From assembly GCA_029933635.1 (NCBI GenBank), contig JAOZNS010000003.1, forward strand, positions 1-32,916: a DNA stretch of 32,916 nucleotides, given 5' to 3'. The position numbers were made by a program, and so were the translations under genes. Numbering within the stretch: the stretch's first letter is position 1; the number at the start of each line of letters is the position of its first letter. Shown in pieces: positions 1 to 27,085 of the stretch. A model generated the notes under the pieces. It saw nothing but the letters and a program-made list of their open reading frames with translations, was not told the DNA's origin and did no database searches. The DNA is from Candidatus Zixiibacteriota bacterium (GTDB lineage: Bacteria > Zixibacteria > MSB-5A5 > SM1-73).

Positions 1-10
1 AAATTATCAA

Positions 11-922
11 TTGGGTTTTATCGTAACCGCCTGTTTTGTAATCAAAAATAATGTGAGATATTTTTACAGGATTAAGGCCATCTCCACTTCGGGAACATCT
101 CTATCGTTGCCCAGCAATCCAGCCTTTTCCAAGGTGCAATGGTTTGATCTTAGCAGGTTGACTTTATTTATCTTGGCGGTGATAATCGGGTTTGCCATCT
201 TTTATTTCATCAACAAAGCTAAGACCGGAAAGGAACTTTTCATCCGCAAGATCGCTGGGTTGGAGGCGGTGGATGATGCGGTTGGTCGGGCAACCGAGAT
301 GGGAAGGAAGATAATTTATATCCCCGGGATCATGGATATGGACAGCATGCAGACCATCGCTGGAGTGACCATCCTTGGAAGGGTGGCCAAGCTGGTAGCC
401 GAATACGAAGCCAAACTTGAGGTTCCTGTGTCGAGATCTCTGGTGATGGTAACCTGCAGAGAGGTGGTTAAGGAGGCATTTCTTAATGCTGGAAGACCGG
501 ATGCTTATAACGACAACATGGTGTATTACCTCACAGACGATCAGTTCGGCTATGCTGCGGCACTGGATGGACTCTTCTTAAGGGACAAACCTGCGGCTGT
601 TTTCCTTCAGGGTCAGTTTTATGCGGAGTCCCTCATCTTGGCTGAGACTGCCAACTCGGTGGGAGCCATCCAAATTGCTGGAACCGCCATGCCCACTCAG
701 CTTCCCTTTTTCGTCGCCGCCTGCGATTATACCCTAATAGGAGAGGAGCTATTTGCCGCCTCAGCCTATCTTTCTAAGGATCCCAAGCTTTTGGGAAGCC
801 TCAAAGGACAGGATGTGGGCAAGCTCATATTTCTTTTAACCATACTGGTAGGGGTTACCCTGCTTACCCTTAATTCTCTTTTAGGATGGAATCTCCCTGA
901 TTTGACCACCATACTATTCTAA
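11..922 (+). CDS. Cassette 1 gene A: DUF6754-like membrane protein, probably 5'-partial
   Basis: Frame is open to the window edge, so the TTG at 11 is probably not the true start. Fn3-like tail YFYRIKA...S..SNP precedes a TM helix. Motifs GRATEMG, AESLILAET and QLPFFVAACDYTLIGEELFAASAYL are shared with 3228-4469 and 6719-7591. Family name is from recall. Confidence 0.8.
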   Translation: MGFIVTACFVIKNNVRYFYRIKAISTSGTSLSLPSNPAFSKVQWFDLSRLTLFILAVIIGFAIFYFINKAKTGKELFIRKIAGLEAVDDAVGRATEMGRKIIYIPGIMDMDSMQTIAGVTILGRVAKLVAEYEAKLEVPVSRSLVMVTCREVVKEAFLNAGRPDAYNDNMVYYLTDDQFGYAAALDGLFLRDKPAAVFLQGQFYAESLILAETANSVGAIQIAGTAMPTQLPFFVAACDYTLIGEELFAASAYLSKDPKLLGSLKGQDVGKLIFLLTILVGVTLLTLNSLLGWNLPDLTTILF

Positions 923-938
923 GGAGTGAAGAAAGAAA

Positions 939-1589
939 ATGCGAAGAGAGGTTCCCTTAGTTTTGACCGCCATCGTGGGGCTGACTATGATAGTTGCCCA
1001 TTTCATCCCGCCCTTTAACATATTGAAGGACCTTTTCGAGGATTGGTTTTTCATAATAGCCGCATTTGCCATCTATTTGGGAGTTTTAAACCTGCTTAAG
1101 GTCAATGCGGATAAGGTTTATAAAAAGGAAAGGGATTGGCCCTTTGGGGTGGTGGTGATTTTGGGGTTTCTTCTGATAACCATAGTGGGGCTATTTTTCT
1201 CCGGAGGAGCCAAGCATTTCCTTGATCCGGGCACACCTTTCTTTTATCTGTATGATCATGTCTATTATCCACTTTCTGCCACCATGTTTGCCCTTCTGGC
1301 TTTCTTTGTCGCTTCAGCCTCTTATCGAGCTTTTCGAGCAAGGAACGTGGATGCCACCATGCTCTTGGTTGCTGCTTTTGTGTTGATGTTGGGGCGGGTC
1401 CCAGTTGGAGACTGGATCAGCGCCTGGCTTCCAGAGGGATACAGGTTAGGAGATGCGGCCGATTGGATTATGGATTTTCCTCAGACGGCGGGACAGAAGG
1501 CTATCATGATCGGCATAGCCTTAGGGGTGATCTCCTCGGCACTGAGGGTCATACTTGGACTGGAGAGGACCTATATGGGAGGGGAGTGA
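939..1589 (+). CDS. Cassette 1 gene B: polytopic membrane protein of unknown function
   Basis: About 6 hydrophobic segments. Motifs ATMFALLAFFVASASYRAFRAR and ILGLERTYMGGE are conserved in 4490-5107 and 7654-8274. AAGGAG upstream. Confidence 0.85.
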   Translation: MRREVPLVLTAIVGLTMIVAHFIPPFNILKDLFEDWFFIIAAFAIYLGVLNLLKVNADKVYKKERDWPFGVVVILGFLLITIVGLFFSGGAKHFLDPGTPFFYLYDHVYYPLSATMFALLAFFVASASYRAFRARNVDATMLLVAAFVLMLGRVPVGDWISAWLPEGYRLGDAADWIMDFPQTAGQKAIMIGIALGVISSALRVILGLERTYMGGE

Positions 1590-1595
1590 TCGAAG

Positions 1596-2462
1596 ATGAA
1601 CCAAAAGACCGACCAGAATGAAAAGAGTTTTTGGCAGACCCTTCTCAATATAGATCGAAGGATCATCTTTCTTTTCATCGCGGTTGCGGTTGCATTGCCG
1701 TTGTTCTTCAGAATTTCAATGCACATACCGGTGACTCCGGTGGCGCGAGGGGTATATGATGCCATAGAGAGCCTTCCTCCCGGCTCTAAAGTGTTAGTCT
1801 CGTTTGATTATGATCCCGGATCCATGCCGGAACTTCAGCCAATGGCTGAGGCATTCTTCCGCCATGCTTTCGGGAAGGATCTGAAGGTGATCATTATGGG
1901 ACTCTGGCCGCAGGGTCCCTTGCAGGCAAACATTGCCCTAAAGGAGGTCTTCAAGGACGAGGAGATAAGGGCGAAAAATCTTCAGTATGGCATAGATTAT
2001 GTCAATTTAGGATTCACCGCGGGCAACGAGGTGGTGATCGACCGAATGGGGCACAGCTTTGAGGAATCTTATCCTCAGGATAGCAGGGGAACGCCCCTTT
2101 CTCAAATTCCCCTGATGAGAGGCGTGAGGAGCTATGACAACATTGATCTGATATACAATCTTTCTGCCGGCTATCCGGGGACCCAGGAATGGGTGCAATA
2201 TGCGGTGGACGTTTTTCATGTGAAATTGGTTGCAGGCAATACCGCAGTTCAAGCACCCTCCATGTATCCTTATGTTCAGACGGGTCAACTGCTGGGGGTT
2301 CTGGGTGGGATGAAGGGTGGAGCTGAATACGAGGTTGCCATAGGGCGACCGGGAAAAGCAGTAAGATATATGTTCTCTCAAGCCATAGCTCATGCGGTGA
2401 TCTGTCTGTTCATCATCATAGGTAACTTGGCTTTCTTCTCGCTGAAAAAGAAGAGATCTTAG
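1596..2462 (+). CDS. Cassette 1 gene C: soluble alpha/beta domain between N- and C-terminal TM helices
   Basis: DRR-TM start, DYDPGSMPE, YGIDYVNLGF, GQLLGVLGGMKGGAEYE, final TM and basic tail KKKRS. Paralogous to 5125-5949 and 8359-9207. Confidence 0.85.
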   Translation: MNQKTDQNEKSFWQTLLNIDRRIIFLFIAVAVALPLFFRISMHIPVTPVARGVYDAIESLPPGSKVLVSFDYDPGSMPELQPMAEAFFRHAFGKDLKVIIMGLWPQGPLQANIALKEVFKDEEIRAKNLQYGIDYVNLGFTAGNEVVIDRMGHSFEESYPQDSRGTPLSQIPLMRGVRSYDNIDLIYNLSAGYPGTQEWVQYAVDVFHVKLVAGNTAVQAPSMYPYVQTGQLLGVLGGMKGGAEYEVAIGRPGKAVRYMFSQAIAHAVICLFIIIGNLAFFSLKKKRS

Positions 2463-2475
2463 CTGGAGGTTGACC

Positions 2476-3135
2476 ATGAGTGGAGAAGCTGTGGGATTGT
2501 GGATCGGTGCCCTTTTGACCCTGGGAATTTTCAGCTTTCTATATAAAGATAACCCCTTCTATAAATTCTCCGAAGCTTTGTTTGTGGGCGTATCTGCTGG
2601 CTATTGGTTCGTGGTCACTTACTTCAATTACTTTTTACCCAAATTGGTGGATAACCTGACTTTGGCTTATACCGAGCTGGTCACCCATGGGAGGGTGGAC
2701 TATCACTGGGTTTACTTGGTGGGAGGAGCGCTGGGGATCTTGATGCTTTTGAGGCTTCTGCCCAAGGTGGGGTGGTTGTCCCGATGGTCTTTGGCTTTTG
2801 TGGTGGGAACCACCGCTGGACTGCAATTCACCCGTTACCTGCAGAGCAACGGAATAATTCAGGTGAAGGGAACCATTCTTCCCTTATTTGTTGGGGGAGA
2901 TCTGCATGCCACCATCGGCAACATTGTGATCGTGGTAGGAACATTCTGTGGCTTGATCTATTTCTTCTTCTCCAAGGAACATAAAGGCGCCTTTGGCGGA
3001 GCCGCTCGGTTGGGAGTATGGTTTTTGATGATTACCTTTGGAGCCTTATTCGGATACACGGTGATGAGCCGTATGTCGCTTTTGATCGGGAGGATGTATT
3101 ATCTTTTCCATTATTGGTTAGGTTTGATCGGATAA
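2476..3135 (+). CDS. Cassette 1 gene D: polytopic membrane protein of unknown function
   Basis: Motifs IFSFLYKDNPFYK.SE...VGVSAGY and LIYFFFSKEHKG are conserved in 5960-6598 and 9238-9864. ATG 2476 preferred over TTG 2470 because GGAGG lies at 2465-2469. Confidence 0.85.
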   Translation: MSGEAVGLWIGALLTLGIFSFLYKDNPFYKFSEALFVGVSAGYWFVVTYFNYFLPKLVDNLTLAYTELVTHGRVDYHWVYLVGGALGILMLLRLLPKVGWLSRWSLAFVVGTTAGLQFTRYLQSNGIIQVKGTILPLFVGGDLHATIGNIVIVVGTFCGLIYFFFSKEHKGAFGGAARLGVWFLMITFGALFGYTVMSRMSLLIGRMYYLFHYWLGLIG

Positions 3136-3227
3136 GTTGGTTAAAGCGTTTAAGAGGAACGTAGATCGGATCGTTAAATTTTTTGGTTGCAAACACCCCA
3201 TTTTGGTCACTGGTAGAAGAGGTGATG

Positions 3228-4469
3228 ATGAAAAACAGAGTTGTTTTTTGCAATAAGTTTTTGTCAAGCTTGGTGGTGGGACTTTGGTTTCTCCTTCTGA
3301 TGGGGACCTCTTGGGCTCAACAGGCTCAGAGGATCTCAGCTGAAGATTCGTTGGCGCTGTTACCTTCCCCTCCTACTGAGGTGATGGCGAAAGATGCTCC
3401 CAATGATGGGGGACATGCTCTTTTGGTCACCTGGAAGCTTTCAGCTGACGATGGGGCAGGCAGAAACAACGTGATCTCTTATGAGATATTAAGATCGGAT
3501 AATCCGGACTCCGGTTTTGTGGTAAGGGGAATGGTGCCCGCGGGAACAAATACTTACAAGGATGAAGGGGTTAAGGAGAAGGATTCGGAGAATTATTTCC
3601 CCAGTCACAAAAATTTTTACTACAAGGTAAGGGCCAATGCAGAGAGGGGCTCATCCGAATCTGAGGTTTCCCCGCCAGCTTATGCTTATGGTCAGCTATT
3701 TCACACCGGCAAGACGGTAATCTTTGTGGCTTGTGTGCTCTTCTCGGTCTTCACCGTGATCTTTATCAGAAAAGCCAAGCGGGGAGAGGAGCTTTATGTG
3801 CGTCCCATTGCAGGAATCTCCGCTGTGGACGAAGCTATAGGCAGAGCGACCGAGATGGGAAAGCCGATCCTTTACATTCTGGGATTGGGAACGGCAGCGG
3901 AGATCGCAACAATCGCTTCCTTCACCATACTCTCTCGCATAGCCAAGATGACCGCAGAATATCGGACCCCCATTTTGGTTCCCTGCAGGGATCCCATAGT
4001 GATGATGGTGGCCCAAGAGACGGTGAAAGCCGCTTATCTGGATGCGGGAAGACCGGATATGTATAAGGAGGAAAACATCTACTACATCACCTCCATGCAG
4101 TTCGCCTATGTGGCCGCGGTGAACGGAATCATGTTGAGGGAAAGGCCGGCGACCAACTTCTATATGGGAAAATTCTATGCCGAATCTCTGATCCTGGCAG
4201 AAACCGGATCGGTGGCAGGGTCCATTCAGATCTCTGGCACAGATGAGATCGCTCAGATCCCCTTCTTCGTGGCCGCCACCGACTATACCTTGATTGGAGA
4301 GGAACTTTACGCCGCCTCCGCTTACTTGGGCAGAGAACCATTACTTTTGGGTTCGCTTAAGGCTCAGGATTGGGGAAAGGCTTTGGTGATGATCAGCCTG
4401 ATCTTGGGGGGGCTGGCGGCAACGTTTTCCCTTAATTTCTTTGTAAACCTGTTTGCGATAAAACTTTAA
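3228..4469 (+). CDS. Cassette 2 gene A: signal peptide + fibronectin type III-like domain + DUF6754-like domain
   Basis: GAGGTG at 3219-3224 supports ATG 3225/3228. Signal-like N-terminus ends SWA-QQ. Fn3 pattern PSPPT.V...LVTW...YEILRS...YKD...YYKVRA, then TM and the conserved gene A motifs. Confidence 0.85.
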   Translation: MKNRVVFCNKFLSSLVVGLWFLLLMGTSWAQQAQRISAEDSLALLPSPPTEVMAKDAPNDGGHALLVTWKLSADDGAGRNNVISYEILRSDNPDSGFVVRGMVPAGTNTYKDEGVKEKDSENYFPSHKNFYYKVRANAERGSSESEVSPPAYAYGQLFHTGKTVIFVACVLFSVFTVIFIRKAKRGEELYVRPIAGISAVDEAIGRATEMGKPILYILGLGTAAEIATIASFTILSRIAKMTAEYRTPILVPCRDPIVMMVAQETVKAAYLDAGRPDMYKEENIYYITSMQFAYVAAVNGIMLRERPATNFYMGKFYAESLILAETGSVAGSIQISGTDEIAQIPFFVAATDYTLIGEELYAASAYLGREPLLLGSLKAQDWGKALVMISLILGGLAATFSLNFFVNLFAIKL

Positions 4470-4489
4470 TCATCCAAGGGGTTTTAAGC

Positions 4490-5107
4490 ATGCGTGGACA
4501 GCTTCCCGTCGTAATCGTCTTCATCTCGGGCGTGTTCATGGCCGTTCAATACTTCATTCCCCACGATGCGGGAGTATTCTTTTATGAGTATGGATTGGAT
4601 TGGATCATTGTCATCGGAGTCTTTGCCATGCTTTTGGGCATCTGGAGCCTGTTTCGAGTTCAACTGGATAAGGTGACCAAGAAAGCTCCCGGGTGGGGAT
4701 ATAGCGTGGTGGCTTTGGGCGGGCTTTTTTTCATGCTGATCGGCGGTCCCTTATGGGGGATCGAGGAGGGAACCCCTTTTATGCAGGTCTTCTGGTATAT
4801 CTATACCCCCATTCAAGCCACCATGTTTTCCCTCTTGGCCTTCTATATCGCCTCTGCCGCCTATCGGGCTTTTCGGGCTAGAACCGTTCTGGCAACCATT
4901 CTGCTTCTGACCGCATTGGTGATCATGCTTCGTTTGATCCCCTTAGGACCCATCTCCGGTCCAAATCAGAAGTTAGCCACTTGGATCTTAATGGTTCCCA
5001 GCATGGCAGCCAATCGAGCCATCTTGATCGGGATAGGGTTGGGAATTGTAGCCACCTGTTTGAAGATCATCTTGGGGATTGAGAGAGCATATATGGGGCA
5101 CGATTAA
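4490..5107 (+). CDS. Cassette 2 gene B: polytopic membrane protein
   Basis: QATMFSLLAFYIASAAYRAFRAR; ILGIERAYMG; paralogue of 939-1589. Confidence 0.85.
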   Translation: MRGQLPVVIVFISGVFMAVQYFIPHDAGVFFYEYGLDWIIVIGVFAMLLGIWSLFRVQLDKVTKKAPGWGYSVVALGGLFFMLIGGPLWGIEEGTPFMQVFWYIYTPIQATMFSLLAFYIASAAYRAFRARTVLATILLLTALVIMLRLIPLGPISGPNQKLATWILMVPSMAANRAILIGIGLGIVATCLKIILGIERAYMGHD

Positions 5108-5124
5108 GTTGTTGGAGGCAAAAA

Positions 5125-5949
5125 ATGGATTTTTATGAAAGATTGATGAATTTGGATCGAAGGTGGGTTTATCTGGTGGTGGGTATAGCGGTAATCATCC
5201 CGGTTTTAAATCCCTTTCGGGTGCCCGTTTTCGTCACCCAAGAGGTTAAAGCTATTTACGATTTTGTGGAGAGCCTGGAGCCGGGAGATATTCTCTTTCT
5301 GGCGATTGATTATGATCCCCAAGCCATGGCAGAGGTTCATCCCATGGCAAGAGCCATCATGCGCCAATGTTTTTCCAAGGATATCAAACTCATCATTTCC
5401 GCGCTTTCGCAGAATGGACCAGGGATGGCGGAGCAATTGATAAGTGAGGTGGCAAAGGAGTATAATAAGAAGAGCGGAATAGATTATTGCTATCTGGGGT
5501 ATAAGCCTTATTTCGGCTTGGTCATTCTGGCGATGGGGCAGAATTTTAGAATTCCCTTTCCAGAGGACTACTATGGGGTTCCATTGGATTCCCTCCCCAT
5601 GATGCGGGGCGTCAGAAATTATGATGATGTTAAAGGGGTAATTGATATCTCCTCCGGCAACATAACCGATGCTTGGATCATATATGGCAATGGACGGTAC
5701 AACGTTAAATTAGCCATCGGGGTTACCGGAGTGATGACCGCCAATTATTATCCATTTTTAGCCTCCGGACAGATATTCGGTTTGATGGGAGGGCTTAAGG
5801 GGGCCTCGGAGTATGAGGCTCTCTCCAAAAAGGGAGATAGAGCCATCAAGATGATGAGCATCCAGACCACAGCTCACATCGTCATCATCCTGTTCATCGT
5901 GGCGGGCAACATCGGCTACTTCATGTCCCGAAGAAGGAAGGGAAAGTAA
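5125..5949 (+). CDS. Cassette 2 gene C: two-TM anchored soluble-domain protein
   Basis: LDRR-TM, DYDPQAMAE, SGQIFGLMGGLKGASEYE, basic tail RRRKGK. GGAGG RBS. Confidence 0.85.
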   Translation: MDFYERLMNLDRRWVYLVVGIAVIIPVLNPFRVPVFVTQEVKAIYDFVESLEPGDILFLAIDYDPQAMAEVHPMARAIMRQCFSKDIKLIISALSQNGPGMAEQLISEVAKEYNKKSGIDYCYLGYKPYFGLVILAMGQNFRIPFPEDYYGVPLDSLPMMRGVRNYDDVKGVIDISSGNITDAWIIYGNGRYNVKLAIGVTGVMTANYYPFLASGQIFGLMGGLKGASEYEALSKKGDRAIKMMSIQTTAHIVIILFIVAGNIGYFMSRRRKGK

Positions 5950-5959
5950 GGAGGAGAGA

Positions 5960-6598
5960 ATGGATCTGGGGACAATAATCTGGAACACCGTGGCACTTTT
6001 CTTGACCTTGTGTATATTTTCCTTCCTCTATAAGGATAATCCCTTTTATAAATTCGCAGAACATCTGGTGGTGGGAGTATCAGCCGGTTACTTCGCCATC
6101 ATCCTTTTCTATAACGGCTTCATTCCCAAGGTCTGGATACCTGTGGTCAAAAAGGGAGAGTGGTGGTATCTTTTACCGGCCATCCTTGGCTTTATGACCT
6201 GGACTCGTTTTTCGAAAAAATGGTCCTTTATCTCCCGGTTCTCCATCGCCTTTTATATGGGGATTGCGGTGGGCGTGGCTATGCCCTTGGAGATGCAACA
6301 GCGAGTGATTAAGCAACTTCACGCCAGCATGTTGCCCGTATATTTCACCAACGTGCAAGGTTTCTGGAACCTTCTTATTATTCTGGGGGTACTTTGTGGG
6401 TTGATTTATTTCTTTTTCTCCATGGAACACAAAGGAGTTGTGGGAGGAGCGGCCAGGCTTGGGATCTGGATTCTGATGATTGGATTCGGTGCAGGATTTG
6501 GATTGACCGTGATGGGAAGAATTTCCCTTCTGGCAGATAGAATAGAGTTCATGCGCGAATGGTATCTTATGCTAACCCAATTCATCTCCGGGGGGTGA
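5960..6598 (+). CDS. Cassette 2 gene D: polytopic membrane protein
   Basis: IFSFLYKDNPFYKFAE, LIYFFFSMEHKG. AGGAGG RBS. Confidence 0.85.
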   Translation: MDLGTIIWNTVALFLTLCIFSFLYKDNPFYKFAEHLVVGVSAGYFAIILFYNGFIPKVWIPVVKKGEWWYLLPAILGFMTWTRFSKKWSFISRFSIAFYMGIAVGVAMPLEMQQRVIKQLHASMLPVYFTNVQGFWNLLIILGVLCGLIYFFFSMEHKGVVGGAARLGIWILMIGFGAGFGLTVMGRISLLADRIEFMREWYLMLTQFISGG

Positions 6599-6679
6599 GG
6601 CCTCATTTATTGTTAGTTTAATTTTATCAGAATAAACTCTAATTTCTTTTGCCCTAAATATTCTTCACACGATTATGGA

Positions 6680-6701
6680 GCCTGATGAATCAGGCAACTG
6701 C
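6680..6701. repeat. REP-like palindrome between cassettes 2 and 3
   Basis: GCCTGAT-GA-ATCAGGC (6680-6695) followed by AACTGC. Reverse complement GCAGTTGCCTGATTCATCAGGC resembles GTAG-class REP elements. Confidence 0.45.
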
Positions 6702-6718
6702 AATTTCCTTCTCTTTGT

Positions 6719-7591
6719 ATGAAGATTCTTACCCGTTTGAAACCATTTCTTTTCTTTTTCCTTCTGACGCTTTTGATGGATCCATCACTATCAGTTGCTG
6801 GGGAGGATTTGTCTAAGAGTTGGTTTAACCCTCACCGGGTAAACATGCTTTTGTTTTTGATCTTCTTTTTTGCGGTGATAATCTTTTTTATCGATCGAGC
6901 CAAAAAGGGCAAAAGTCTTTTCATCCGGAGGATTGCCGGATTGGATGCCATAGAGGAGGCGGTGGGAAGAGCCACAGAGATGGGCAAGCCGGTGCTTTAT
7001 ATCTCCGGAATAGAGGATGTGGACAATATTCAAACTGTAGCCTCCATGATAATTTTGGGCAACGTTGCCAAGATGGTGGCAAGCTATGATACCCCTTTGC
7101 TTGTTCCCATATGCCGACCTTTTGTGGTTCCGGTGGCGGAGGAGAGGGTGAAGGAGGGGTATGCCGCTGCTGGCAGACCGGAGGCATATAACCGAGACAA
7201 CGTTCGTTATATCTCCGATGAACAGTTCGCCTATGCGGCTGGAGTTCAGGGGATGATGCTTCGCGATCGCCCAGCGGCTAACCTGATGTTTGGTTCCTTT
7301 TTTGCTGAATCCCTGATGTTGGCTGAAACCGGTTTTCTGGCTGGCGCCATTCAGGTGGCAGGCACAGCCAACATTCATCAACTCCCCTTCTTTGTGGTGG
7401 CATGCGATTATACCATAATTGGGGAGGAACTTTTCGCTACCAGTGCCTACCTTTCCAAGGAGCCCAAGCTCTTGGGAAGCCTGAAAGGATCGGATTTAGC
7501 CAAAGCCATAATCATGGTGATTTTAGCCTTAGGCGCTATCCTGGAGACAGCCGGGATAACTCATTTCACACGCTGGTTTTTTATCGAATAA
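6719..7591 (+). CDS. Cassette 3 gene A: DUF6754-like membrane protein without Fn3 domain
   Basis: Signal-like N-terminus, TM, GRATEMGKP, AESLMLAETG, QLPFFVVACDYTIIGEELFATSAYL. In-frame TGA at 6686 rules out an upstream extension. Confidence 0.85.
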   Translation: MKILTRLKPFLFFFLLTLLMDPSLSVAGEDLSKSWFNPHRVNMLLFLIFFFAVIIFFIDRAKKGKSLFIRRIAGLDAIEEAVGRATEMGKPVLYISGIEDVDNIQTVASMIILGNVAKMVASYDTPLLVPICRPFVVPVAEERVKEGYAAAGRPEAYNRDNVRYISDEQFAYAAGVQGMMLRDRPAANLMFGSFFAESLMLAETGFLAGAIQVAGTANIHQLPFFVVACDYTIIGEELFATSAYLSKEPKLLGSLKGSDLAKAIIMVILALGAILETAGITHFTRWFFIE

Positions 7592-7653
7592 AATTTTTTA
7601 ACACAGGGTAAGTCTTACGGAAAGATAAGTCAATTTATTACAAAGGGGTTTGG

Positions 7654-8274
7654 ATGAGACGTGAGATCCCCATGGCGATCTGCTTTCTGGCTGGCTTGTC
7701 ATTCATCCTGGAATATTTCATTCCCCATCATAAGGTCCTTTCAATCTTTGAGACCTTCCGTCAGTGGGCCATAATCGTCATTGCTTTCGCCTATGTGTTA
7801 GGGATAGCCAATATAGTAAGAATCAACTATCATGTGATCCAGAAAAAGGGAAGGGACTGGCCCTATAAGATAATCCTGGTGATCTGCCTTTTCTCCATGA
7901 TCACTGTGGGGGTTTTTGGTGGCACAGGAGAGGGAACCGTTTTCGATTGGGTCTACTATCACGCTCAGTATCCTTTACAGGCAACCATGTTTTCGCTTCT
8001 GGCATTCTTCATCGCCTCGGCGGCATTTCGGGCCTTTAGGGTCCGGACCTTTCATGCATCCCTTCTGGCGGCAACCGCCATTTTGGTGATGATCGGAAGG
8101 GTGCCGGTGGGAGAGAGCATATGGAGGCATTTCCCCGACCTGACCGAGTGGATAATGAACGTCCCTCAACTGGCCGGGAAAAGAGCCATCATGATCGGCG
8201 CGGCTCTGGGTGCCATTTCAACTGCGCTTAAGGTTCTAACCGGTTTGGAAAGAACCTATCTGGGGGGAGAATAG
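7654..8274 (+). CDS. Cassette 3 gene B: polytopic membrane protein
   Basis: MRREIP start, QATMFSLLAFFIASAAFRAFRVR, GLERTYLGGE. Confidence 0.85.
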   Translation: MRREIPMAICFLAGLSFILEYFIPHHKVLSIFETFRQWAIIVIAFAYVLGIANIVRINYHVIQKKGRDWPYKIILVICLFSMITVGVFGGTGEGTVFDWVYYHAQYPLQATMFSLLAFFIASAAFRAFRVRTFHASLLAATAILVMIGRVPVGESIWRHFPDLTEWIMNVPQLAGKRAIMIGAALGAISTALKVLTGLERTYLGGE

Positions 8275-8358
8275 GAAACTCTTGTGGGAATTTAAAGATG
8301 ATTTATCTTTTAACTTTGGCATAGGTGAGGAAGGGCCAGAATCCTTCGAGGAAAAGAA

Positions 8359-9207
8359 GTGAAGAAATTTATGGAAAAACTTGAGCGGCTGGATAGAAGG
8401 GTGATATTTGTCTTTATTGCTATCTCCGTCGCTTTACCCTTACTTTTTCCGGTGTATTTGGATTTTTCCGTCACCCCCCCGGTTCAAAGTTTTTATGATG
8501 CTATAGAGAAGCTTCCTCCGGGCTCCAAGGTGTTGGTCTCCTGTGATTATGACCCCGGCTCCATGCCGGAGCTTTTTCCCATGAACGTGGCGGTATTTTA
8601 TCATCTCCTCTCCCGGGATCTTAAGGTCATCACCATTCAGCTTTGGGCCACCGGCACCCTTTTGGCAGAGCGAGCCATGACTGAGGTTTTAAAGGAGTTC
8701 CCGGAGAAGAAATATGGGCAGGACTGGGTGAATCTGGGGTTCAAGGAGGGAAGAGAGGTGGTGATGGTCTCAATGGGGACCAGCATACCGAAAACCTTTC
8801 CCACCGACTCACGTGGAAGCAAAGTGGAGGATATCCCCATCATGGAAGGGGTGAAAAATTTTGATGATTTCGCTCTTTTGGTGAATATATCTGGCGGTTT
8901 GCCGGGGACCAAAGAATGGGTGCTTCAGGTGCAATCCAGATACCATGTGAAGCTGGGCTCCGGATGCACGGCGGTCAGCGCACCGGAGTTTTACCCCTAT
9001 GTTCAATCAGGACAACTGGTGGGGCTTTTGGGGGGAATGAAGGGGGCGGCTGAATATGAGAAGTTGGTGAAAAGACCTGGAACCGCACAAAGAGGAATGG
9101 ACGCTCAGTCGGTCTCACATATCGTGGTCTTTTTGTTTATCCTGATCGGGAACATTGCCTATTTCTCAGTCAAGGGAACCAGGAAAAGACTTAAAGTTTC
9201 ACGATAG
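8359..9207 (+). CDS. Cassette 3 gene C: two-TM anchored soluble-domain protein
   Basis: LPPGSKVLVSCDYDPGSMPEL, SGQLVGLLGGMKGAAEYE. GTG start; ATG 8371 is an alternative. Confidence 0.85.
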   Translation: MKKFMEKLERLDRRVIFVFIAISVALPLLFPVYLDFSVTPPVQSFYDAIEKLPPGSKVLVSCDYDPGSMPELFPMNVAVFYHLLSRDLKVITIQLWATGTLLAERAMTEVLKEFPEKKYGQDWVNLGFKEGREVVMVSMGTSIPKTFPTDSRGSKVEDIPIMEGVKNFDDFALLVNISGGLPGTKEWVLQVQSRYHVKLGSGCTAVSAPEFYPYVQSGQLVGLLGGMKGAAEYEKLVKRPGTAQRGMDAQSVSHIVVFLFILIGNIAYFSVKGTRKRLKVSR

Positions 9208-9237
9208 TGCTTAAGTTTGAGTCGGGAGTAGAAGTTC

Positions 9238-9864
9238 ATGCCGATAGAGGAAACAATAGGAATCTGGGTGGGTGCCTTTTTGACCCTGTGTATATTTTCC
9301 TTCCTGTATAAGGATAATCCCTTTTATAAGCTGGCCGAACACATATTTGTGGGGATATCTGCAGGATACTGGGCTACACTGGAATGGCATAACGTCTTTC
9401 TACCTAATCTATGGAAACCACTTACCCAGGAAGGAAGGCTTCTTCTTCTGGTTCCCTTCGCCTTTGGAATTTTGCTTTTCGGACGTTTCACCAAAAAATA
9501 TAGCTGGCTTTCCCGCTGGTCCATGGCGCTGATCATCGGAATCTATGCAGGAATAACCATAGTGGGCTATGGATCAGGAGATCTGATACTTCAGATTCAC
9601 GCCAATTTGCTTCCCTTGTGGACCGACGATTGGTTCACCTCCTTAAATAATATCCTATTAACCGTTGGGGTGATAACCGGTCTGATCTACTTCTTCTTCT
9701 CCAAGGAACACAAGGGACTCTTTGGGGCCGGAGCCAAAGTAGGCATCTGGTTTCTGATGATCTCCTTTGGGGCTTCATTTGGCTATACGGTCATGTCCCG
9801 TATGTCTCTTCTGATCGGCAGAATATACTTTCTTTTAGGAAACTGGCTCCATCTTTTGGAGTAA
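9238..9864 (+). CDS. Cassette 3 gene D: polytopic membrane protein
   Basis: IFSFLYKDNPFYKLAE, LIYFFFSKEHKG, YTVMSRMSLLIGR. Confidence 0.85.
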   Translation: MPIEETIGIWVGAFLTLCIFSFLYKDNPFYKLAEHIFVGISAGYWATLEWHNVFLPNLWKPLTQEGRLLLLVPFAFGILLFGRFTKKYSWLSRWSMALIIGIYAGITIVGYGSGDLILQIHANLLPLWTDDWFTSLNNILLTVGVITGLIYFFFSKEHKGLFGAGAKVGIWFLMISFGASFGYTVMSRMSLLIGRIYFLLGNWLHLLE

Positions 9865-10132
9865 TTCCCGGCCACCTGAAATCGTTGGTGTTCAACTGGG
9901 GCAATCTTATCTTTTCGACGACACGATTATGAACAAAGACATCCCCGGCTTATCAGGAGGAGTTTCTCATTTCGCTTTTGGAGAAGGTGTGGGTCTTTCT
10001 TATTTAGGTTGGGAGATTTAATGTAAGTTATTGTATTTGAGAGTCAAATAAAAAAGCATCAACTCTTAGCGAAAAAGATCAGTCTAAAAGGGTGAGGTTG
10101 AAAATCACTCTTTTTTTGCTTTTTCTATCTTT

Positions 10133-10168
10133 CCCTCACCCTAACCCTCTCCCCAAGGGGAGAGGGAA
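10133..10168. repeat. BoxC-like palindromic element
   Basis: CCCTCACCCTAACCCTCTCCCC-AA-GGGGAGAGGGAA. Perfect 10-bp stem (10145-10154 / 10157-10166) with a pyrimidine-rich leader typical of BoxC-type repeats. Confidence 0.7.
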
Positions 10169-10348
10169 CTAACTGTAAATCTATCAACCTTGTGGGTTTT
10201 AAATCATGAAGGTGCGACCTGAAATACGAAAGAACCGGAAATGCCAGGTCTTTCGCATTTTCCCCAAGATTAAAATGAAAAGGAACAGATCTTTCAATTA
10301 TCCCCATAGGGGGAGAGGTTCTAAGATCCTGCGCCTGATGATTTTGGA

Positions 10349-10426
10349 TAGGGGCGAATCTGAAGATTTTCTCTTTTGATTCGGTCAGTTGACTCAAATG
10401 AGGTGGAGTTAAAGCTCTACCCCTAC
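10349..10426. repeat. Degenerate GTAG-type REP doublet (REPIN-like)
   Basis: TAGGGGCGAATC... at left and ...GCTCTACCCCTAC at right in inverted orientation, each with an imperfect internal hairpin. Confidence 0.4.
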
Positions 10427-10606
10427 ATAAACTACGCCAGCACAATATGGACCACCTCCAGGAAATTTCATTCGAAGCTACATTTTTATTTCTCTCGCCC
10501 TAACAACAACCTGCAAAGAACTCTTTTGAGAATGACCCAAAACGTTTAAGCCATTTCCGCAGGATTCAAATGAAGAGGTTTTTTACTCCATCTCATAAAT
10601 GAATTT

Positions 10607-10637
10607 AAAAAAAAGCCCCGCCGTTTAAAGGCGGGGC
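10607..10637 (-). terminator. Rho-independent terminator of the dcw operon
   Basis: Minus strand GCCCCGCC-TTTAAAC-GGCGGGGC-TTTTTTTT, about 105 nt after the ftsZ stop. Confidence 0.85.
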
Positions 10638-10741
10638 CTGTCGCAAAGGAGGCATTGAGGGTCACTAAAGGAGGTATAAGATAGACGGTCATTCTTTCGA
10701 AATCTGCCAATCGGTATGTTTCGAAAAATAATCTTATATTT

Positions 10742-11893
10742 TCATCCCTCGTTTTGTTTCCTCAAAAAAGTGGGAACCTCCCAGTCATCTGCCTGATATG
10801 AGCGAACCTTGCTTCTGGATGAGACCTGGTGAGGCTTCCCCAGAGGTTCCTTTTGTTTCAGCGAGTTTTTTTCCAAAATCAGCTTGCCTGATGAGAAAAG
10901 GTCGGAGCCGGATTCGGTTTCCTCGCTTTTCAGATTATTGCCAAATCCAGTGGCGATGACCGTTACCCTGATCTCATCCTGAAGATTCTCATCTATCACC
11001 GCGCCGAAGATGATGTTGGCCTCGGTCCCCGCCGCCTCGGCAACCAAGCTGGCGGCCTCATTTACCTCAAGAAGTCCCATATTACTGTTGCCCGTGATGT
11101 TGATTAAAACAGCCTTAGCTCCATTTATGGAGACGTTATCCAGAAGGGGACTGGAGATAGCCTGGGTGGCAGCTTCCTTGGCGCGATTCTCACCGATTCC
11201 GTATCCAATGCCCATGAGCGCATCTCCCATCTCCGACATCACGGTCTTGACATCTGCAAAGTCCAGATTGATTAAGCCGGGGACGCTGATAAGGTCGGAG
11301 ATCCCTTTGGTGGCTTGAAGCAGAACCTCATCTGCCATCCTGAAAGCATCGGTGAGCTTGGTATCTGGGTTGGCTAAGCTCAAAAGCTTCTGGTTGGGAA
11401 TGACTATCAAAGTATCCACCTTATCCTTTAGCTCCTCAATTCCCATAAGGGCGCGGCTCATACGCTTTTTTCCTTCAAAATCAAAAGGCTTGGTTACGAT
11501 CCCGATGGTTAAGGCTCCCTGATCTTTAGCCAGCTCTGCAACAATGGGACAGGCGCCGGTGCCGGTGCCACCTCCCATTCCGGCGGTGACGAAGATCATA
11601 TCCGCACCCAAAAGTGATTCTGCCACCACATCCCTGTCCTCCTCAATCGCCCTTCTGCCGATCTCCGGACTGGCTCCTGCGCCTAATCCTTTGGTAAGGC
11701 GAGAGCCGATCTGGACCCTATGGGTGGCTTTGCAATTCTCCAAATCCTGGAGGTCGGTATTTATGGAGATGAAATCCACTCCCGAGAGTCCAGCGTCGAT
11801 CATTCGATTGACAGCATTCCCTCCGGCCCCACCCACCCCTACCACCTTCATCCGGGCGTAATTTTCATAACTTGTGTCCAGCTCAAAAAACAT
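10742..11893 (-). CDS. ftsZ: Cell division GTPase FtsZ
   Basis: GVGGAGGNA, GMGGGTGTG, INLDFADV, C-terminal EVPTFLRKQ. Confidence 0.98.
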   Translation of the reverse strand: MFFELDTSYENYARMKVVGVGGAGGNAVNRMIDAGLSGVDFISINTDLQDLENCKATHRVQIGSRLTKGLGAGASPEIGRRAIEEDRDVVAESLLGADMIFVTAGMGGGTGTGACPIVAELAKDQGALTIGIVTKPFDFEGKKRMSRALMGIEELKDKVDTLIVIPNQKLLSLANPDTKLTDAFRMADEVLLQATKGISDLISVPGLINLDFADVKTVMSEMGDALMGIGYGIGENRAKEAATQAISSPLLDNVSINGAKAVLINITGNSNMGLLEVNEAASLVAEAAGTEANIIFGAVIDENLQDEIRVTVIATGFGNNLKSEETESGSDLFSSGKLILEKNSLKQKEPLGKPHQVSSRSKVRSYQADDWEVPTFLRKQNEG

Positions 11894-11919
11894 AGCTTCT
11901 CCCTCCCTCTTTTGGAATT

Positions 11920-13146
11920 TTAAAGATATGAACTAAAAATGTTTTTCATCTTTTGAAACCATCCCTTTGCCTTCAGGCGTCCTCTTAGCTTTCCTTCTCT
12001 CATCTGTTCCCATCCGTAGAGGATCAGCCCCACTCCAGTCGAATAGATGGGGCTGGAGGCATGTTCCTCCAGACCGGCTAAGCCTTGTGGTTTTCCGGTT
12101 CGCACCGGAACATCAAATATCTTTTCTGCCAGCTCCACCATTCCTGGCATCAACGATCCTCCGCCGGTGAGAACGATTCCGGCGGTTAAAAGGTCAAAAA
12201 AGTTACTTTTTTTCATTTCTTGAAGGGTAAGGCTAAGTATTTCCTCCACCCGGGGTTCGATTATTGCGGAAAGCACAGTTCGGGAGATCTGTTGAGGCTT
12301 TCTCCCCCCCACCCCAGGAACCTCAATGGTCTCATCCGGATCCACCAGGCTGGATATGGCACAACCGTAGAGTTTTTTAATCTCCTCAGCCTGATCCACC
12401 GGCGTTCTTAGACCAATGGCCACATCGTTGGTGATGTTTTTTCCTCCTAAGCCCACCACCCCGGTGTGTCTGATGGAGCCGTCATAGAAGATGGCAAAAT
12501 CGGTGGTTCCCCCTCCCAGATCCAAAAGCGCCACCCCTAACTCCTCCTCATCCGGAGACAATAGTGCGTAGCTGGTGGCAAGGGGTTGAAGCACCAGATC
12601 CTTTACCTCCACTCCAGCCTTTTTTACGCTCCGGTAGATGTTCTGAGCGGAGGTAATAGCTCCGGTGACTATATGAACCTCGGTTTCTAACCTCACCCCC
12701 ACCATTCCCACCGGATCTTTGACTCCGGTTTGATCATCCACCGTGAACTCCTGAGGCAGGACATGGATGATTTCCCGATCCATGGGCAAGGCAACCGTCT
12801 TGGCAGCTTCGATAACCTTCTCCACATCCGTGGGGGTGATCTCGTGATCGGAGCCAGATACTGCGATCACCCCTCTGCTGTTGATGCTTCGGATGTGATC
12901 GCCAGCTATGCCAGCAAAGACGGAGTCCACCTTAACTCCTGCCATCATCTCCGCATCTTCCACCGCGGTAGCTATCGACTCCACGGTCCTCTCCAGGTTG
13001 ATGACCACTCCCCGCTTCAGTCCTTCCGATGGACTGGTGCCAATACCAATTATCTTGGGTTGCCCGGACTCACCTATCTCTGAAATGATGGCTGCTATCT
13101 TGGTGGTCCCTATATCCAAACCGACGATTTGACTTTCATCTCCCAT
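11920..13146 (-). CDS. ftsA: Cell division protein FtsA
   Basis: GLDIGTTK, LDLGGGTTD, VLTGGGS, amphipathic C-terminus; position before ftsZ. Confidence 0.97.
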   Translation of the reverse strand: MGDESQIVGLDIGTTKIAAIISEIGESGQPKIIGIGTSPSEGLKRGVVINLERTVESIATAVEDAEMMAGVKVDSVFAGIAGDHIRSINSRGVIAVSGSDHEITPTDVEKVIEAAKTVALPMDREIIHVLPQEFTVDDQTGVKDPVGMVGVRLETEVHIVTGAITSAQNIYRSVKKAGVEVKDLVLQPLATSYALLSPDEEELGVALLDLGGGTTDFAIFYDGSIRHTGVVGLGGKNITNDVAIGLRTPVDQAEEIKKLYGCAISSLVDPDETIEVPGVGGRKPQQISRTVLSAIIEPRVEEILSLTLQEMKKSNFFDLLTAGIVLTGGGSLMPGMVELAEKIFDVPVRTGKPQGLAGLEEHASSPIYSTGVGLILYGWEQMREGKLRGRLKAKGWFQKMKNIFSSYL

Positions 13147-13161
13147 GTCTGCCTCTTGGTC

Positions 13162-13998
13162 TTAAAGGTTTTGGACTTTTGTCTGATCGGGAGGGTTTTC
13201 GCTTTTCCCTTCTGGCAAGGGAGCTTTTCTTGAGGAATCGGTCAGCACCACCTGATCATCGAATCTAAGATCCAGACATAAAAACTGGTTGACTTTGTTC
13301 TCCATGGCCAGGATGGTTTTCACCCTTCTCCATTTTTTCTTAAAATCGCCCAGCCCCATCATCACTTTGACCCCGGGCAGAAGATAGACAATTGGATCGG
13401 AAATATCTCGAAGGTTGATCTCGGCTAAAAGCTTTTCCAAATCGGGATCAGCCGAAAGCAGAGTGCTGTATAACTCCAACGCCTTTGCCACCTTAAGATT
13501 AGAACATTTCCGATAAGGTTTTAAGGCGTTCTCTGTTTTTGGATCTACCTCCTTTGACTCGATTCCGGTCACCATTGGGAGATCACGGTATAAATCCTCC
13601 TGATCTAAAGGGATGATCTCCTGATCGATCGACAGCCCACAAAATCCCCATTCCCCCAGATCAGGGAATTTGGCTGGAAGGCTGAGCCAGAGAATCGGCA
13701 TCTTTTCTTGCACCTCAATCAATATGCTCTGTGGAAACCTTCTTTTTATTAAGACCCCCTTTATCCTCGGGTCCTTTTTTAGCTCTGCCTCAATCTGGGT
13801 TAAGTTCAGGCTGAAGATGTTTTTGCCCAGGCATGGTTGGACTTTTTTCATGATCTCGTTGGATGTTATCTTGTGGTTTCCCCGGATCTTAATTTCGATC
13901 ACATCGAAGTTAGGGGAGTGACAAACGTATATGTAGGTTCCGCAAAATATCAATATGATCGCAACAAGGACAAAAAAAGTTCTCTTCCCGTTAGTCAA
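13162..13998 (-). CDS. ftsQ: Cell division protein FtsQ/DivIB
   Basis: N-terminal TM, POTRA-like I.IRGN...RRFPQSILIEVQE, C-terminal LDLRFDDQVV; synteny. Confidence 0.9.
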   Translation of the reverse strand: MTNGKRTFFVLVAIILIFCGTYIYVCHSPNFDVIEIKIRGNHKITSNEIMKKVQPCLGKNIFSLNLTQIEAELKKDPRIKGVLIKRRFPQSILIEVQEKMPILWLSLPAKFPDLGEWGFCGLSIDQEIIPLDQEDLYRDLPMVTGIESKEVDPKTENALKPYRKCSNLKVAKALELYSTLLSADPDLEKLLAEINLRDISDPIVYLLPGVKVMMGLGDFKKKWRRVKTILAMENKVNQFLCLDLRFDDQVVLTDSSRKAPLPEGKSENPPDQTKVQNL

Positions 13999-13999
13999 A

Positions 14000-15373
14000 T
14001 TATTCCCTCAACTGATTTAAAAGTTGCGTTCCAGCCTTGTATACATCCCCTGCTCCCATGGTGATGACCATATCGTTTTCTCTTATCATCCGTCTCAGAA
14101 AGGAGGCCACCTTCTCTAATTGTGGAACATAAAATACATTTTTATGTCCGAGCTTCTTAGCGGAATCGGAGATGAGCTGCCCGCTCACTCCCGGTATAGG
14201 ACTCTCTCGTGCGGGATAAACGTCGGTCACCACCAGCACGTCAGAAAGGAGAAGTGCTCTGCCAAATTCTTGATGGAGGTCCCGGGTTCGAGAAAACAGA
14301 TGAGGTTGAAATACCGCCACCGTTCTTCTTTTCCATCCAGTCCTTGCGCTTTCTAAGGTGGCTAAGATCTCCGTGGGATGATGGGCATAATCATCCACCA
14401 CCAAAACGCCTTTCACCTCTCCTTTGATCTCAAATCTTCTATGCACCCCTTTGAACTTCTTCAGTCCACCTATAATTTTCTCCCAGGGTATATCCAGTTC
14501 CAAACCGACTCCAATTGCCGCCAGGGAGTTTTTTACATTATGAGCTCCAGGAACGGATAGAGATACCTCTCCTTTGTTCTCCCCATTGATTTGCACTTCA
14601 AACCTGCTGTGGTTTTTCTCAAAACGGATGGAGTAAGCTTTAAGATCTGCCTCCGGAGATAGACCATAAGTGGTCAAGGGTCTTTCTATTTGAGGAACCA
14701 GCTCTTGCAAATTCCTTTCGTCCCAGCATAGAATTACCCTTCCGTAGAAGGGGACCTTATTCACAAACTCGAGGAAGGCGGATTTTATTTCTTCAAAATC
14801 TTTGTAATAATCCAGATGCTCCGCCTCCAGCGTGGTGACCACTGCGATGGTGGGGGTGAGCTGTAAAAAGGAGCGATCGTATTCGTCCGCTTCTGTCACC
14901 ATAAATTCTCCATTTCCCAAGCGGGCGTGCGCACCCAAGTTGATCACCCTTCCGCCCACCACGATGGTGGGGTCCAGTCCCCCCTCAGACAGGATCTCAC
15001 CCACCATCGAGGTGGTGGTTGTCTTCCCATGAGTGCCGGCGATGCCGATCCCGTATTTCATTCTCATCAGCTCGCCTAACATCTCGGCCCTTCTTATCAC
15101 CGGGATCCTTCTATTTTTTGCTCCGATCACCTCTGGATTGTCCTTTTTTACCGCGGAGGAGATGACCACCAGGTCTGCATCCTTTACATTCTCTTCAAGG
15201 TGTTGACTTCGAATCTTTATCCCAAGATCCTGTAACCTTTGGGTGGTCTCGGAGGATTTGAGATCAGAGCCGGTGACCTCATATCCCAGATTGAAAAGCA
15301 CCTCGGCAATGCCGGACATCCCCGCTCCACCAATTCCTACAAGATGGATATGTTTTATTTTACTGAATTTCAT
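14000..15373 (-). CDS. murC: UDP-N-acetylmuramate--L-alanine ligase
   Basis: GIGGAGMSG, GTHGKTTT, EADEYD, DDYAHHPTE. Confidence 0.97.
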   Translation of the reverse strand: MKFSKIKHIHLVGIGGAGMSGIAEVLFNLGYEVTGSDLKSSETTQRLQDLGIKIRSQHLEENVKDADLVVISSAVKKDNPEVIGAKNRRIPVIRRAEMLGELMRMKYGIGIAGTHGKTTTTSMVGEILSEGGLDPTIVVGGRVINLGAHARLGNGEFMVTEADEYDRSFLQLTPTIAVVTTLEAEHLDYYKDFEEIKSAFLEFVNKVPFYGRVILCWDERNLQELVPQIERPLTTYGLSPEADLKAYSIRFEKNHSRFEVQINGENKGEVSLSVPGAHNVKNSLAAIGVGLELDIPWEKIIGGLKKFKGVHRRFEIKGEVKGVLVVDDYAHHPTEILATLESARTGWKRRTVAVFQPHLFSRTRDLHQEFGRALLLSDVLVVTDVYPARESPIPGVSGQLISDSAKKLGHKNVFYVPQLEKVASFLRRMIRENDMVITMGAGDVYKAGTQLLNQLRE

Positions 15374-15448
15374 AATCGATACTGGGTGATCCCAAAGCCT
15401 CGGTTATTTTATCTTTATGGGTTTGCATAATTTTTAAACCCACGGTTC

Positions 15449-16558
15449 TCATCTATAGATTTTTACCCTTTTCTTCAAAAGTCTGTCCATCTCATCAACC
15501 AAAAGTGATGTTGCCTCGGGTCTGCTCACCTCTTTGCTTTTCTCCGCCATCCGTTTCAATTTGGCCGAATTAGAAAGAAGAGAACGAATCTGCACGGAGA
15601 GTTTTTCTGCGGTTAGGTCCCTTTGCAGTATCATCTTTGAAGCCCCCTTTTCTTGTAGACTTTCGGCATTATGTCTTTGATGATCTCCGGTGGCGAAGGG
15701 AAAAGGGATGAGTATGGAGGGTTTCCCGCAGGCGGTGATCTCCGCTAAGGTTAATGCTCCTGCCCGGGAAACCACCAAATCCGAAGCCGCATACGCAGAT
15801 CCCATGTTTCGAATGAATGGATAGACCGCGCATTTAATTTTTTTTCCTTTCACCTTCTGAGAGATCCGAGGAAAATCCGCTTCTCCGGTCTGCCACAGAA
15901 CTTGCCATTCGGGCGGAAGCAAATCCAAGCATTGCAAAAATACAGAATTTATGGCATGAGCACCCTGACTGCCGCCGAAAACGAATATGGTGGCTTTTCC
16001 CTGATCCAATCCAAATTCCTTCAGGGCATGACTTCGCTTCGCCTGGAGAAGATCTCCTCTTATGGGATTTCCGATGACAGTCAATTTTTTTCTTTGGCGG
16101 AAATACCGGACCGATTCTGGATAGGAGAGACATACCCGGTCCACGAAATGGATCAAAAATCGGGTGGAGATTCCCGGGTAGCTGTTCTGCTCCTGGATCA
16201 TGGTGGGCACCTTCAATAAGCTGGCCAAAAGGACCACCGGAAAGCTCACATATCCCCCGGTTCCCACCACCAGATGGGGTTTGGTCTGATTTAATATCTT
16301 GATGGCTTGATAAAAACCTCTCAAAAGATAAAACCAGAGGAACAGGTTGGATAGAAAAGAGCTTCTGGCGAATCCTTTCGTCTGAATAAACACCAGCTTA
16401 AAACCATGTAAAGGAACGACCTTTCTTTCCAGTCCCTCCTTGGTTCCCACGAAGATAAGCTGACTTTGGGGAACTCTCTTTTTGAACTCCTTGGCCATGG
16501 CTATTGCCGGAAAGATGTGTCCGCCGGTCTTTCCTCCTGCAAATATGACTCTTATCAT
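15449..16558 (-). CDS. murG: Lipid II-forming GlcNAc transferase MurG
   Basis: GGKTGGHIFP, GTGGYVS, EQN, GNP, GGSQGA, SRAGA, HQ..NA. Confidence 0.97.
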   Translation of the reverse strand: MIRVIFAGGKTGGHIFPAIAMAKEFKKRVPQSQLIFVGTKEGLERKVVPLHGFKLVFIQTKGFARSSFLSNLFLWFYLLRGFYQAIKILNQTKPHLVVGTGGYVSFPVVLLASLLKVPTMIQEQNSYPGISTRFLIHFVDRVCLSYPESVRYFRQRKKLTVIGNPIRGDLLQAKRSHALKEFGLDQGKATIFVFGGSQGAHAINSVFLQCLDLLPPEWQVLWQTGEADFPRISQKVKGKKIKCAVYPFIRNMGSAYAASDLVVSRAGALTLAEITACGKPSILIPFPFATGDHQRHNAESLQEKGASKMILQRDLTAEKLSVQIRSLLSNSAKLKRMAEKSKEVSRPEATSLLVDEMDRLLKKRVKIYR

Positions 16559-17679: not shown

Positions 17680-17691
17680 CTGACCTTTTCC

Positions 17692-19077: not shown

Positions 19078-19171
19078 AAAAATTCGGTGCTGAAGTTGAA
19101 ACCAATCCTTATAGTTTACATCCTTTTTGCCTTTCCCCTTTGTTTTCCCTCTTCACAGATGCGAAGCAGGG

Positions 19172-19200
19172 ATTGTGGGGTGAAGCTTTCAGATTGTCAA
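19172..19200 (-). promoter_or_regulatory. Internal sigma70-type promoter upstream of murD
   Basis: Minus strand TTGACA (19200-19195), 17-nt spacer, CACAAT (19177-19172) in the 171-bp mraY-murD gap. Confidence 0.55.
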
Positions 19201-19248
19201 ACTGTTTTTCTCAACATAATCAACGGTGAGAGACATATGATCCACTTT

Positions 19249-20334: not shown

Positions 20335-20402
20335 CCCATTCCTACAGCAGTTTGTTAGGTTGATAATCCGTCATCTTCCTGGCTGAAAAGATCATGTTTC
20401 AA

Positions 20403-21815: not shown

Positions 21816-21859
21816 AGTATTTTGGGACGCCCATTTGCAGGGCGATTCATCAATTGTCC

Positions 21860-25991: not shown

Positions 25992-26047
25992 GTTCTCTTC
26001 CCTCCATCTATGATCGAATCAATTAAAAGAACATACCGCTCTTTCAA

Positions 26048-27046: not shown

Positions 27047-27085
27047 ACCTTTCTATAAATATGAGGGGGCAGAAGTTTGGCACTC

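Follow-up and report, generated by a model that had tools for sequence, protein, structure and literature searches.

The A-B-C-D array and its products

The window considered here is the whole 32,916-nucleotide stretch that was analyzed, positions 1 to 32,916 of contig JAOZNS010000003.1 from a Candidatus Zixiibacteriota bacterium (assembly GCA_029933635.1). It begins with twelve closely packed genes on the + strand (2..9864) which form three tandem copies of a four-gene unit, A-B-C-D, with intergenic gaps of 6-120 bases throughout the array. A preliminary description of this DNA regarded A and C as hidden homologues placed on opposite sides of the membrane. Here we consider how the two proteins are related, and which role the four-gene module they belong to may have.

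Cassette 1 starts at the contig end. The A1 gene (2..922) is 5'-truncated and encodes the tail of an exported Fn3-like domain, a transmembrane (TM) helix, an alpha/beta domain of ~200 residues predicted to be cytoplasmic and a second TM helix, as judged from hydropathy and charge bias. The start previously assigned to gene A at position 11 is not a genuine start, as the open reading frame (ORF) of A1 runs open off the 5' end of the contig. A related complete genome encodes an A1 orthologue of 401 residues, compared with which A1 lacks about 95 residues at its N-terminus. The B1 gene (939..1589) encodes a polytopic membrane protein with ~6 TM helices and the conserved motif ATMFSLLAFFIASAAFRAFRAR. 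It is followed by C1 (1596..2462), which has a basic N-terminal tail, a TM helix, an alpha/beta domain of ~220 residues predicted to be extracytoplasmic, a second TM helix and a basic C-terminal tail. The cassette closes with D1 (2470..3135), a membrane protein which is likewise polytopic and contains the conserved motifs LYKDNPFYK and YFFFSKEHKG.

The A subunit of cassette 2, A2 (3183..4469), is full-length, and its hydropathy indicates a signal-like segment, an exported domain of ~130 residues, a TM helix, the predicted cytoplasmic domain and a second TM helix. B2 (4490..5107), C2 (5125..5949) and D2 (5960..6598) follow in the same order. In cassette 3, A3 (6719..7591) has a short ectodomain and precedes B3 (7654..8274), C3 (8359..9207), for which co-variation contacts show a parallel strand ladder, and D3 (9238..9864). 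A promoter and terminator scan of 1..10800 gave counts near the shuffled expectation, with no strong terminator within the cassettes, and Rfam and tRNA scans of the window returned no match. The ~880 bases between D3 and the end of ftsZ (9865..10741) are likewise free of Rfam and tRNA matches and contain a single ORF, of 106 residues on the - strand (10125..10445).

The A subunits belong to the Pfam family DUF6754 (PF20539; DUF, domain of unknown function), as A1, A2 and A3 match the full model with 409.4, 380.9 and 386.7 bits, respectively, at a gathering cut-off of 27 bits. This entry covers A alone and is silent on function, and the B, C and D subunits are without an entry, i.e., none of them matches a Pfam or NCBIfam family above cut-off. 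No module subunit matches the families of energy-coupling factor (ECF) transporters or ATP-binding cassette (ABC) transporters, and the pilus, secretion and motility families of Pfam and NCBIfam gave no subunit match either. Profile searches against the sequences of solved structures returned best E-values of 0.28 for A, 0.37 for C and 1.3 for B, and none for D. The 30 nearest Atlas clusters of C3 and of a close C relative are unnamed and have no Pfam family in common. Our literature search found no paper mentioning DUF6754, PF20539 or PF13941, the last being the family of the ATPase discussed below. In the searched literature the module is undescribed and its subunit A is already catalogued as a DUF; what is new concerns the function and the module, not the idea of an A/C pair.

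Long A relatives carry exported domains, either PQQ-type beta-propellers or Fn3 domains, ahead of their single first helix. By our own count, 47 of the 120 listed A relatives carry PF13360 and five of the 120 carry PF00041. The Fn3 label previously given to A is based on weak Pfam matches (Ig_RIMBP2, with E-values of 0.087 and 0.0012) and on the naming of homologues in their source records. In one A relative (P0319), a single case, the membrane domains DUF2142 and PMT_2 of GT-C-type glycosyltransferases stand ahead of DUF6754.

Facing and relationship of A and C

In all three cassettes, hydropathy confirms the earlier observation that A and C are built alike, each with a soluble domain of ~200-217 residues between two TM helices. 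A1 and C1 both have two strong hydrophobic segments, which flank 200 and 221 residues, respectively, and the family median of the domain length is 201 residues for A and 217 for C. A additionally has a signal-like segment or an exported domain ahead of its first TM helix, and C has short basic tails at both ends.

The charge bias of the two families was measured as the lysine plus arginine (K+R) count in the 15-residue TM flanks of 103 A relatives and 95 C relatives. For A, the count is 6.9 on the domain side versus 2.2 on the outer side, and the domain side is higher in 103/103 relatives. For C, the count is 7.6 in the outer tails versus 3.2 on the domain side, and the outer tails are higher in 94% of the 95 relatives, with the reverse in 1%. 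From this bias the A domain is predicted to be cytoplasmic and the C domain extracytoplasmic. The placement of A inside and C in the periplasm, first proposed from the positive-inside rule, thus extends as a prediction to both families. The exported domains ahead of A's single first helix also put the DUF6754 domain inside, and in one C relative (P0386) the soluble domain is interrupted by a CARDB domain, a type which is usually extracellular. Taken together, charge bias and fused domains suggest that the soluble domains of A and C probably lie on opposite membrane faces. In the C family, of which 5445 representatives were found at E <= 0.001, insertions are concentrated near profile positions 100-118 and include the CARDB domain of P0386 and the HEAT repeats of P0448. 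Three proteins of ~470-600 residues (P0376, P0475 and P0503) match C over their first ~275 residues and may be C-D fusions.

Homology between A and C, as claimed in the preliminary description, was not supported by any sequence or profile comparison. BLASTP of A against C gave best E-values of 0.76 and 5.5. The comparison of A and C profiles by hhalign, which had been named as a check of the claim, gave probabilities of 0.3-1.1% at every depth: 0.3% with 3 versus 3 sequences, 1.05% with 31 versus 32, 1.1% with 104 versus 109 sequences from many phyla, and 0.6% for the soluble domains alone (344 versus 373 sequences, including 150 representatives at 50% identity). The aligned stretch was limited to one membrane helix with its basic flank. 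A lack of significant profile similarity had been named beforehand as one of the outcomes that would refute the claim, and this outcome was obtained. The score of the two domain profiles was 18.2, compared with 15.0 +/- 2.9 for column-shuffled C profiles (z = 1.1; 10 of 60 controls as high) and 17.5 for a reversed-profile control. Nine pairs of A and C soluble domains, aligned by Smith-Waterman and globally with 300 shuffles, had z-values from -1.7 to +1.5, and A1 versus A2 as positive control reached a z of ~100. C1-C3 did not match the PF20539 model at E <= 1, and 0 of 29 diverse C proteins matched it at E <= 5, in a search where the HMMER filters drop most matches above ~0.1.

The likeness had first been argued from parallels picked out by eye, and all strings quoted for them are present in the translations. 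Three of these parallels lie at chance level, with ungapped BLOSUM62 scores of 7, 2 and -1 that are equalled or exceeded by 596, 2989 and 8824 other sequence-window pairs of the same two proteins, respectively. The fourth is the best-scoring pair and is taken up below. A further part of the proposal was that A and C form an inverted-topology, pseudo-symmetric pair of the transporter type. This is unsupported as well, since A and C contribute two helices each and the polytopic proteins B and D are also unrelated (hhalign 0.5%). An ancient duplication of AB to CD was rejected on the same B versus D value. At the sequence level, A and C are not demonstrable duplicates, and on present evidence the claim of their homology stands as a negative result.

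The fold indications are of limited depth. An AlphaFold model of A3, built on a 31-row alignment, was poor, with a predicted local distance difference test (pLDDT) of 54.3 and a predicted template modelling score (pTM) of 0.46, and strands and helices alternate between its two TM helices. For C, co-variation contacts at an effective number of sequences (Meff) of 221 show a parallel ladder of the first two strands (56-88, 59-93, 61-93 and 62-94), and the helices pack as is typical for alpha/beta domains; the strand-helix alternation also appears in a crude propensity sketch. For A, the co-variation signal is thin at an Meff of 44. When C was scored as the partner of A(30-290), B and D in a complex prediction, the real set did no better than a control in which A had been exchanged.

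Cysteines at two positions of the C domain, residues 62 and 202 of C3, tend to occur together: among 373 C domains, 114 have Cys at both positions, 93 at a single one and 166 at neither. Their mutual coupling is weak (2.5 standard deviations) and confounded by kinship, and each of them couples to the neighbouring residues 75 and 76. The two cysteines of C3 may form a disulfide or a site.

An alternative to two separate subunits is that A and C arose by an ancient duplication of one gene and became fixed in opposite orientations, which would give homologous domains inside and outside and a pseudo-symmetric module. We regard this as quite unlikely. The common layout with median domains of 201 and 217 residues, the opposite predicted orientations, the strand-helix alternation seen in both domains and the TM2 regions as the best window pair of A1 and C3 are all consistent with it, and the order A-B/C-D, a two-TM protein and then a polytopic one, resembles a repeated pair. 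However, no A-C sequence or profile signal appeared at any depth, and the lack of relationship between B and D leaves the picture of a pair of pairs without support. The strand couplings differ as well, with first-second and second-to-170s couplings in C and second-third and first-fourth couplings in A, where the signal is weak at the Meff given above. In known dual-topology and inverted systems (EmrE, YdgE/YdgF, Fluc and inverted repeats), the two partners are inserted in opposite orientations, as is predicted for the products of the neighbouring genes A and C. However, the partners there are small membrane proteins and recognizably homologous, and the repeated unit is a membrane bundle, whereas A and C are without detectable homology, have two helices each and consist in bulk of a soluble domain. 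A soluble domain that folds in both cytoplasm and periplasm would be unlike these known pairs.

Distribution of the module and its ATPase partner

A scan with the C profile over one genome per species gave 610 pattern matches, of which 588 were coding relatives; 80 loci were retained. By record title, these loci are from Zixibacteria, Eisenbacteria, Latescibacterota, WOR-3, Stahlbacteria, TA06, Fermentibacteria, Myxococcota and others. Gene order was compared in 97 loci, i.e., these 80 plus another 17 from the phylum of the window. In 47 of the 97, A-B-C-D occurs as a single cassette, and in 11 as a double one; the remaining loci are mostly truncated or have further copies, and three have a different order. 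In one genome (G045, 6542..10506), two tandem A genes of 283 and 291 residues precede B-C-D. DUF6754 was found in 151/151 genomes of the phylum, mostly with 4-6 matches each.

Distances between A proteins follow those between C proteins with r = 0.88 over 88 cassettes. When partners were swapped within a locus, r was 0.55, and 0/500 swaps reached the observed value. This tracking of A and C within cassettes indicates that the cassettes duplicated and diverged as units. In one comparison, A1 shares 46% identity with A2 and 52% with A3, and C1 shares 38% with C2 and 54% with C3; in a second one, the paralogues of the window are 46-50% (A) and 38-54% (C) identical. The three cassettes have their respective orthologues in cassettes 1, 2 and 3 of the related complete genome, which belongs to the same taxonomic order, with identities of 66, 71 and 71% for A and 55, 66 and 72% for C. 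By these identities and orthologies, the window is shown to carry three old paralogous modules.

Two further genes recur upstream of the cassettes. A 375-residue protein without any family is encoded directly upstream of A, on the same strand, in 32 of 44 loci with enough flank, and in 29 of 35 loci the 4.5 kb upstream contain, again on the same strand, a gene for an actin-fold ATPase of the GlmL family (PF13941) with ~615 residues. In most relatives these two genes stand at the head of the operon. The related complete genome has the order GlmL-like gene, 375-residue gene, M4 peptidase gene with type IX secretion tail, and three cassettes. In the window's own genome, which has five DUF6754 genes and one GlmL-family gene, the latter is found on contig C148 (PF13941 at 434.3 bits over positions 1-450; 433.4 bits with hmmscan) and adjoins an open-ended ORF of 339 residues at the contig end. 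This ORF is taken to be the 375-residue gene by position only, and contig C148 probably lies upstream of the window. Across the phylum, PF13941 is present in 149/151 genomes, mostly with one match, and one strong match was also obtained in each of five genomes with cassettes to which loci named for other phyla had led (5/5). There are thus about five modules per single ATPase gene per genome.

According to its Pfam match, the upstream partner is a GlmL-family member. As with the accessory proteins of glutamate mutase (GlmL/MutL; PF13941, TIGR01319), it matches PF13941 end to end at 433-434 bits; it differs from them in its length of ~615 residues with a C-terminal extension, and in lying beside membrane genes and not mutase genes. 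The orthologue in the related complete genome remained under the NCBIfam cut-offs, with 230.5 versus 475 for NF040745 (GlmL) and 172.2 versus 204.05 for TIGR01319 (glmL_fam).

The actin-fold partner raises the possibility of a system that does not transport at all, i.e., a PilM-PilN-PilO- or GspL-like membrane-spanning scaffold or motor which would connect exported domains with the actin-fold protein and serve surface display, secretion or movement. PilM-PilN-PilO and GspL also couple an actin-fold cytoplasmic protein to membrane proteins with periplasmic domains. The binding-type domains exported by A (beta-propellers and Fn3) would suit such a role, as would the genes with type IX secretion tails nearby, both in the window and in the related genome, and the DUF4388, ExbB, ExbD and TonB genes downstream in a few loci. 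However, there is no sequence match to the PilM-PilN-PilO/GspL systems, subunit count and layout differ from theirs, no subunit falls in a pilus, secretion or motility family of Pfam or NCBIfam, and the neighbours differ between lineages. In addition, the GlmL family comprises accessories of B12 mutases according to the Pfam and NCBIfam descriptions, and its members are hydantoinase-like and not filament formers. We consider a scaffold or motor unlikely, though worth keeping in mind.

Of the five cassettes that the window's own genome contains, one is split (contig C279, 3711..11694): its B and C genes are separated by a Ser/Thr kinase gene, a LiaF-like gene and small ORFs, and genes for phosphotransferase system (PTS) enzyme I and phosphoglucose isomerase stand ahead of A-B. 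In a complete genome of the same taxonomic order, by size comparison only, the genes ahead of A-B correspond in length, and four ORFs are inserted between B and C. The kinase and LiaF-like genes bear on another alternative, namely a transmembrane sensor or signal relay in which the A ectodomain and the outer C domain bind ligands and DUF6754 passes the signal to the cytoplasmic pair of ATPase and 375-residue protein. Variable ectodomains on a very conserved cytoplasmic domain of A and several specialized paralogues per genome would be consistent with such a relay. Against this, the module has no output domain of a known signalling family in Pfam or NCBIfam, two polytopic subunits per module exceed what a sensor needs, and the split cassette is one of five. 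A sensor therefore seems highly improbable to us.

Possible function of the module and neighbouring genes

Collectively, our results make it rather probable that A and C represent distinct subunits of a single conserved, ATPase-linked four-protein inner-membrane module, A-B-C-D, for which transport is the most likely task. In this module, A would hold the DUF6754 domain in the cytoplasm, often with a variable exported domain ahead of it, and C would hold an unrelated domain outside, while B and D would supply the polytopic membrane core or path. The shared cytoplasmic ATPase pair might dock on the DUF6754 domain of A, and B and D might then pass an ATPase-driven event across the membrane to the outward C domain and the A ectodomain. 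Most likely, this event would consist in transport, with each module type having a substrate of its own. On this view, the resemblance between A and C would represent a shared architectural solution on a common Rossmann-like fold class and not an inverted gene pair.

The specific form that we favour, a modular ATP-driven transport machine, is put forward tentatively and is given clearly less than an even chance in our analysis. It is suggested by the architecture, the five modules per one ATPase and the varied neighbours. In ECF transporters and ABC importers, one energizing module is common to several substrate-specific parts. The arrangement described here resembles them in having one ATPase gene for about five membrane modules and in retaining old paralogue types, but the ATPase is of the actin-fold GlmL family and not of the ABC type.

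Several points weigh against two unrelated, ATPase-linked transport subunits. The fourth by-eye parallel, the part before TM2 and TM2 itself of A1 against the same part of C3, has a score of 30 and is the best of 74,692 window pairs, although mostly hydrophobic membrane-helix residues make up the match. The A family is so conserved (an effective diversity, Neff, of 2.2) that its profile has little reach, and the topology of A and C is a predicted one, resting on charge bias and fused domains. Both domains look Rossmann-like in class, judging from the A3 model and from the propensity sketch and contacts of C, which leaves room for very old common descent; as this is the commonest class, it is in itself no argument for such descent. 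The ATPase gene is not adjacent in 6 of the 35 loci. As for transport, no subunit matches a known transporter family above cut-off in Pfam or NCBIfam; the sole match to one, B1 to TauE in Pfam, has 22.6 bits, under the cut-off of 32.6.

The four-protein module has no characterized relative, is present in all 151 genomes of the phylum searched and recurs under many other phyla. Should the ATPase power the modules, they would constitute a class of membrane machines that are driven by ATP but belong to none of the ABC, P-type, F/V-type and Sec families. The duplicate origin of A and C can also be combined with the ATPase: were the two from one gene, the same Rossmann-like domain would stand on both membrane faces, and the ATPase acting on the inner copy would change the outer copy. 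We hold this to be very unlikely; if true, ATP would here be coupled in a novel manner to an event beyond the cytoplasm.

Beyond the array, the - strand of the window holds a complete division and cell-wall cluster (10742..27529), with ftsZ, ftsA, ftsQ, murC, murG, ftsW, murD, mraY, murF, murE, ftsI, an ftsL-like gene, mraW and mraZ, all named from ORF translations and not by family scan. A strong terminator-like hairpin follows ftsZ (10639..10613). On the + strand, a gene at 28098..30620 encodes an 840-residue peptidase C25 (gingipain family), which has a propeptide and, at its C-terminus, a sorting domain for type IX secretion. The M4 peptidase of the related genome, encoded between the 375-residue gene and the first cassette, has the same tail. 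Further downstream on the + strand, an exosortase-family membrane protein (30943..31954; PF09721, 58 bits) is encoded, overlapping a hydrophobic ORF of 156 residues without a family, and it is followed by an isochorismatase-family gene (32019..32702).

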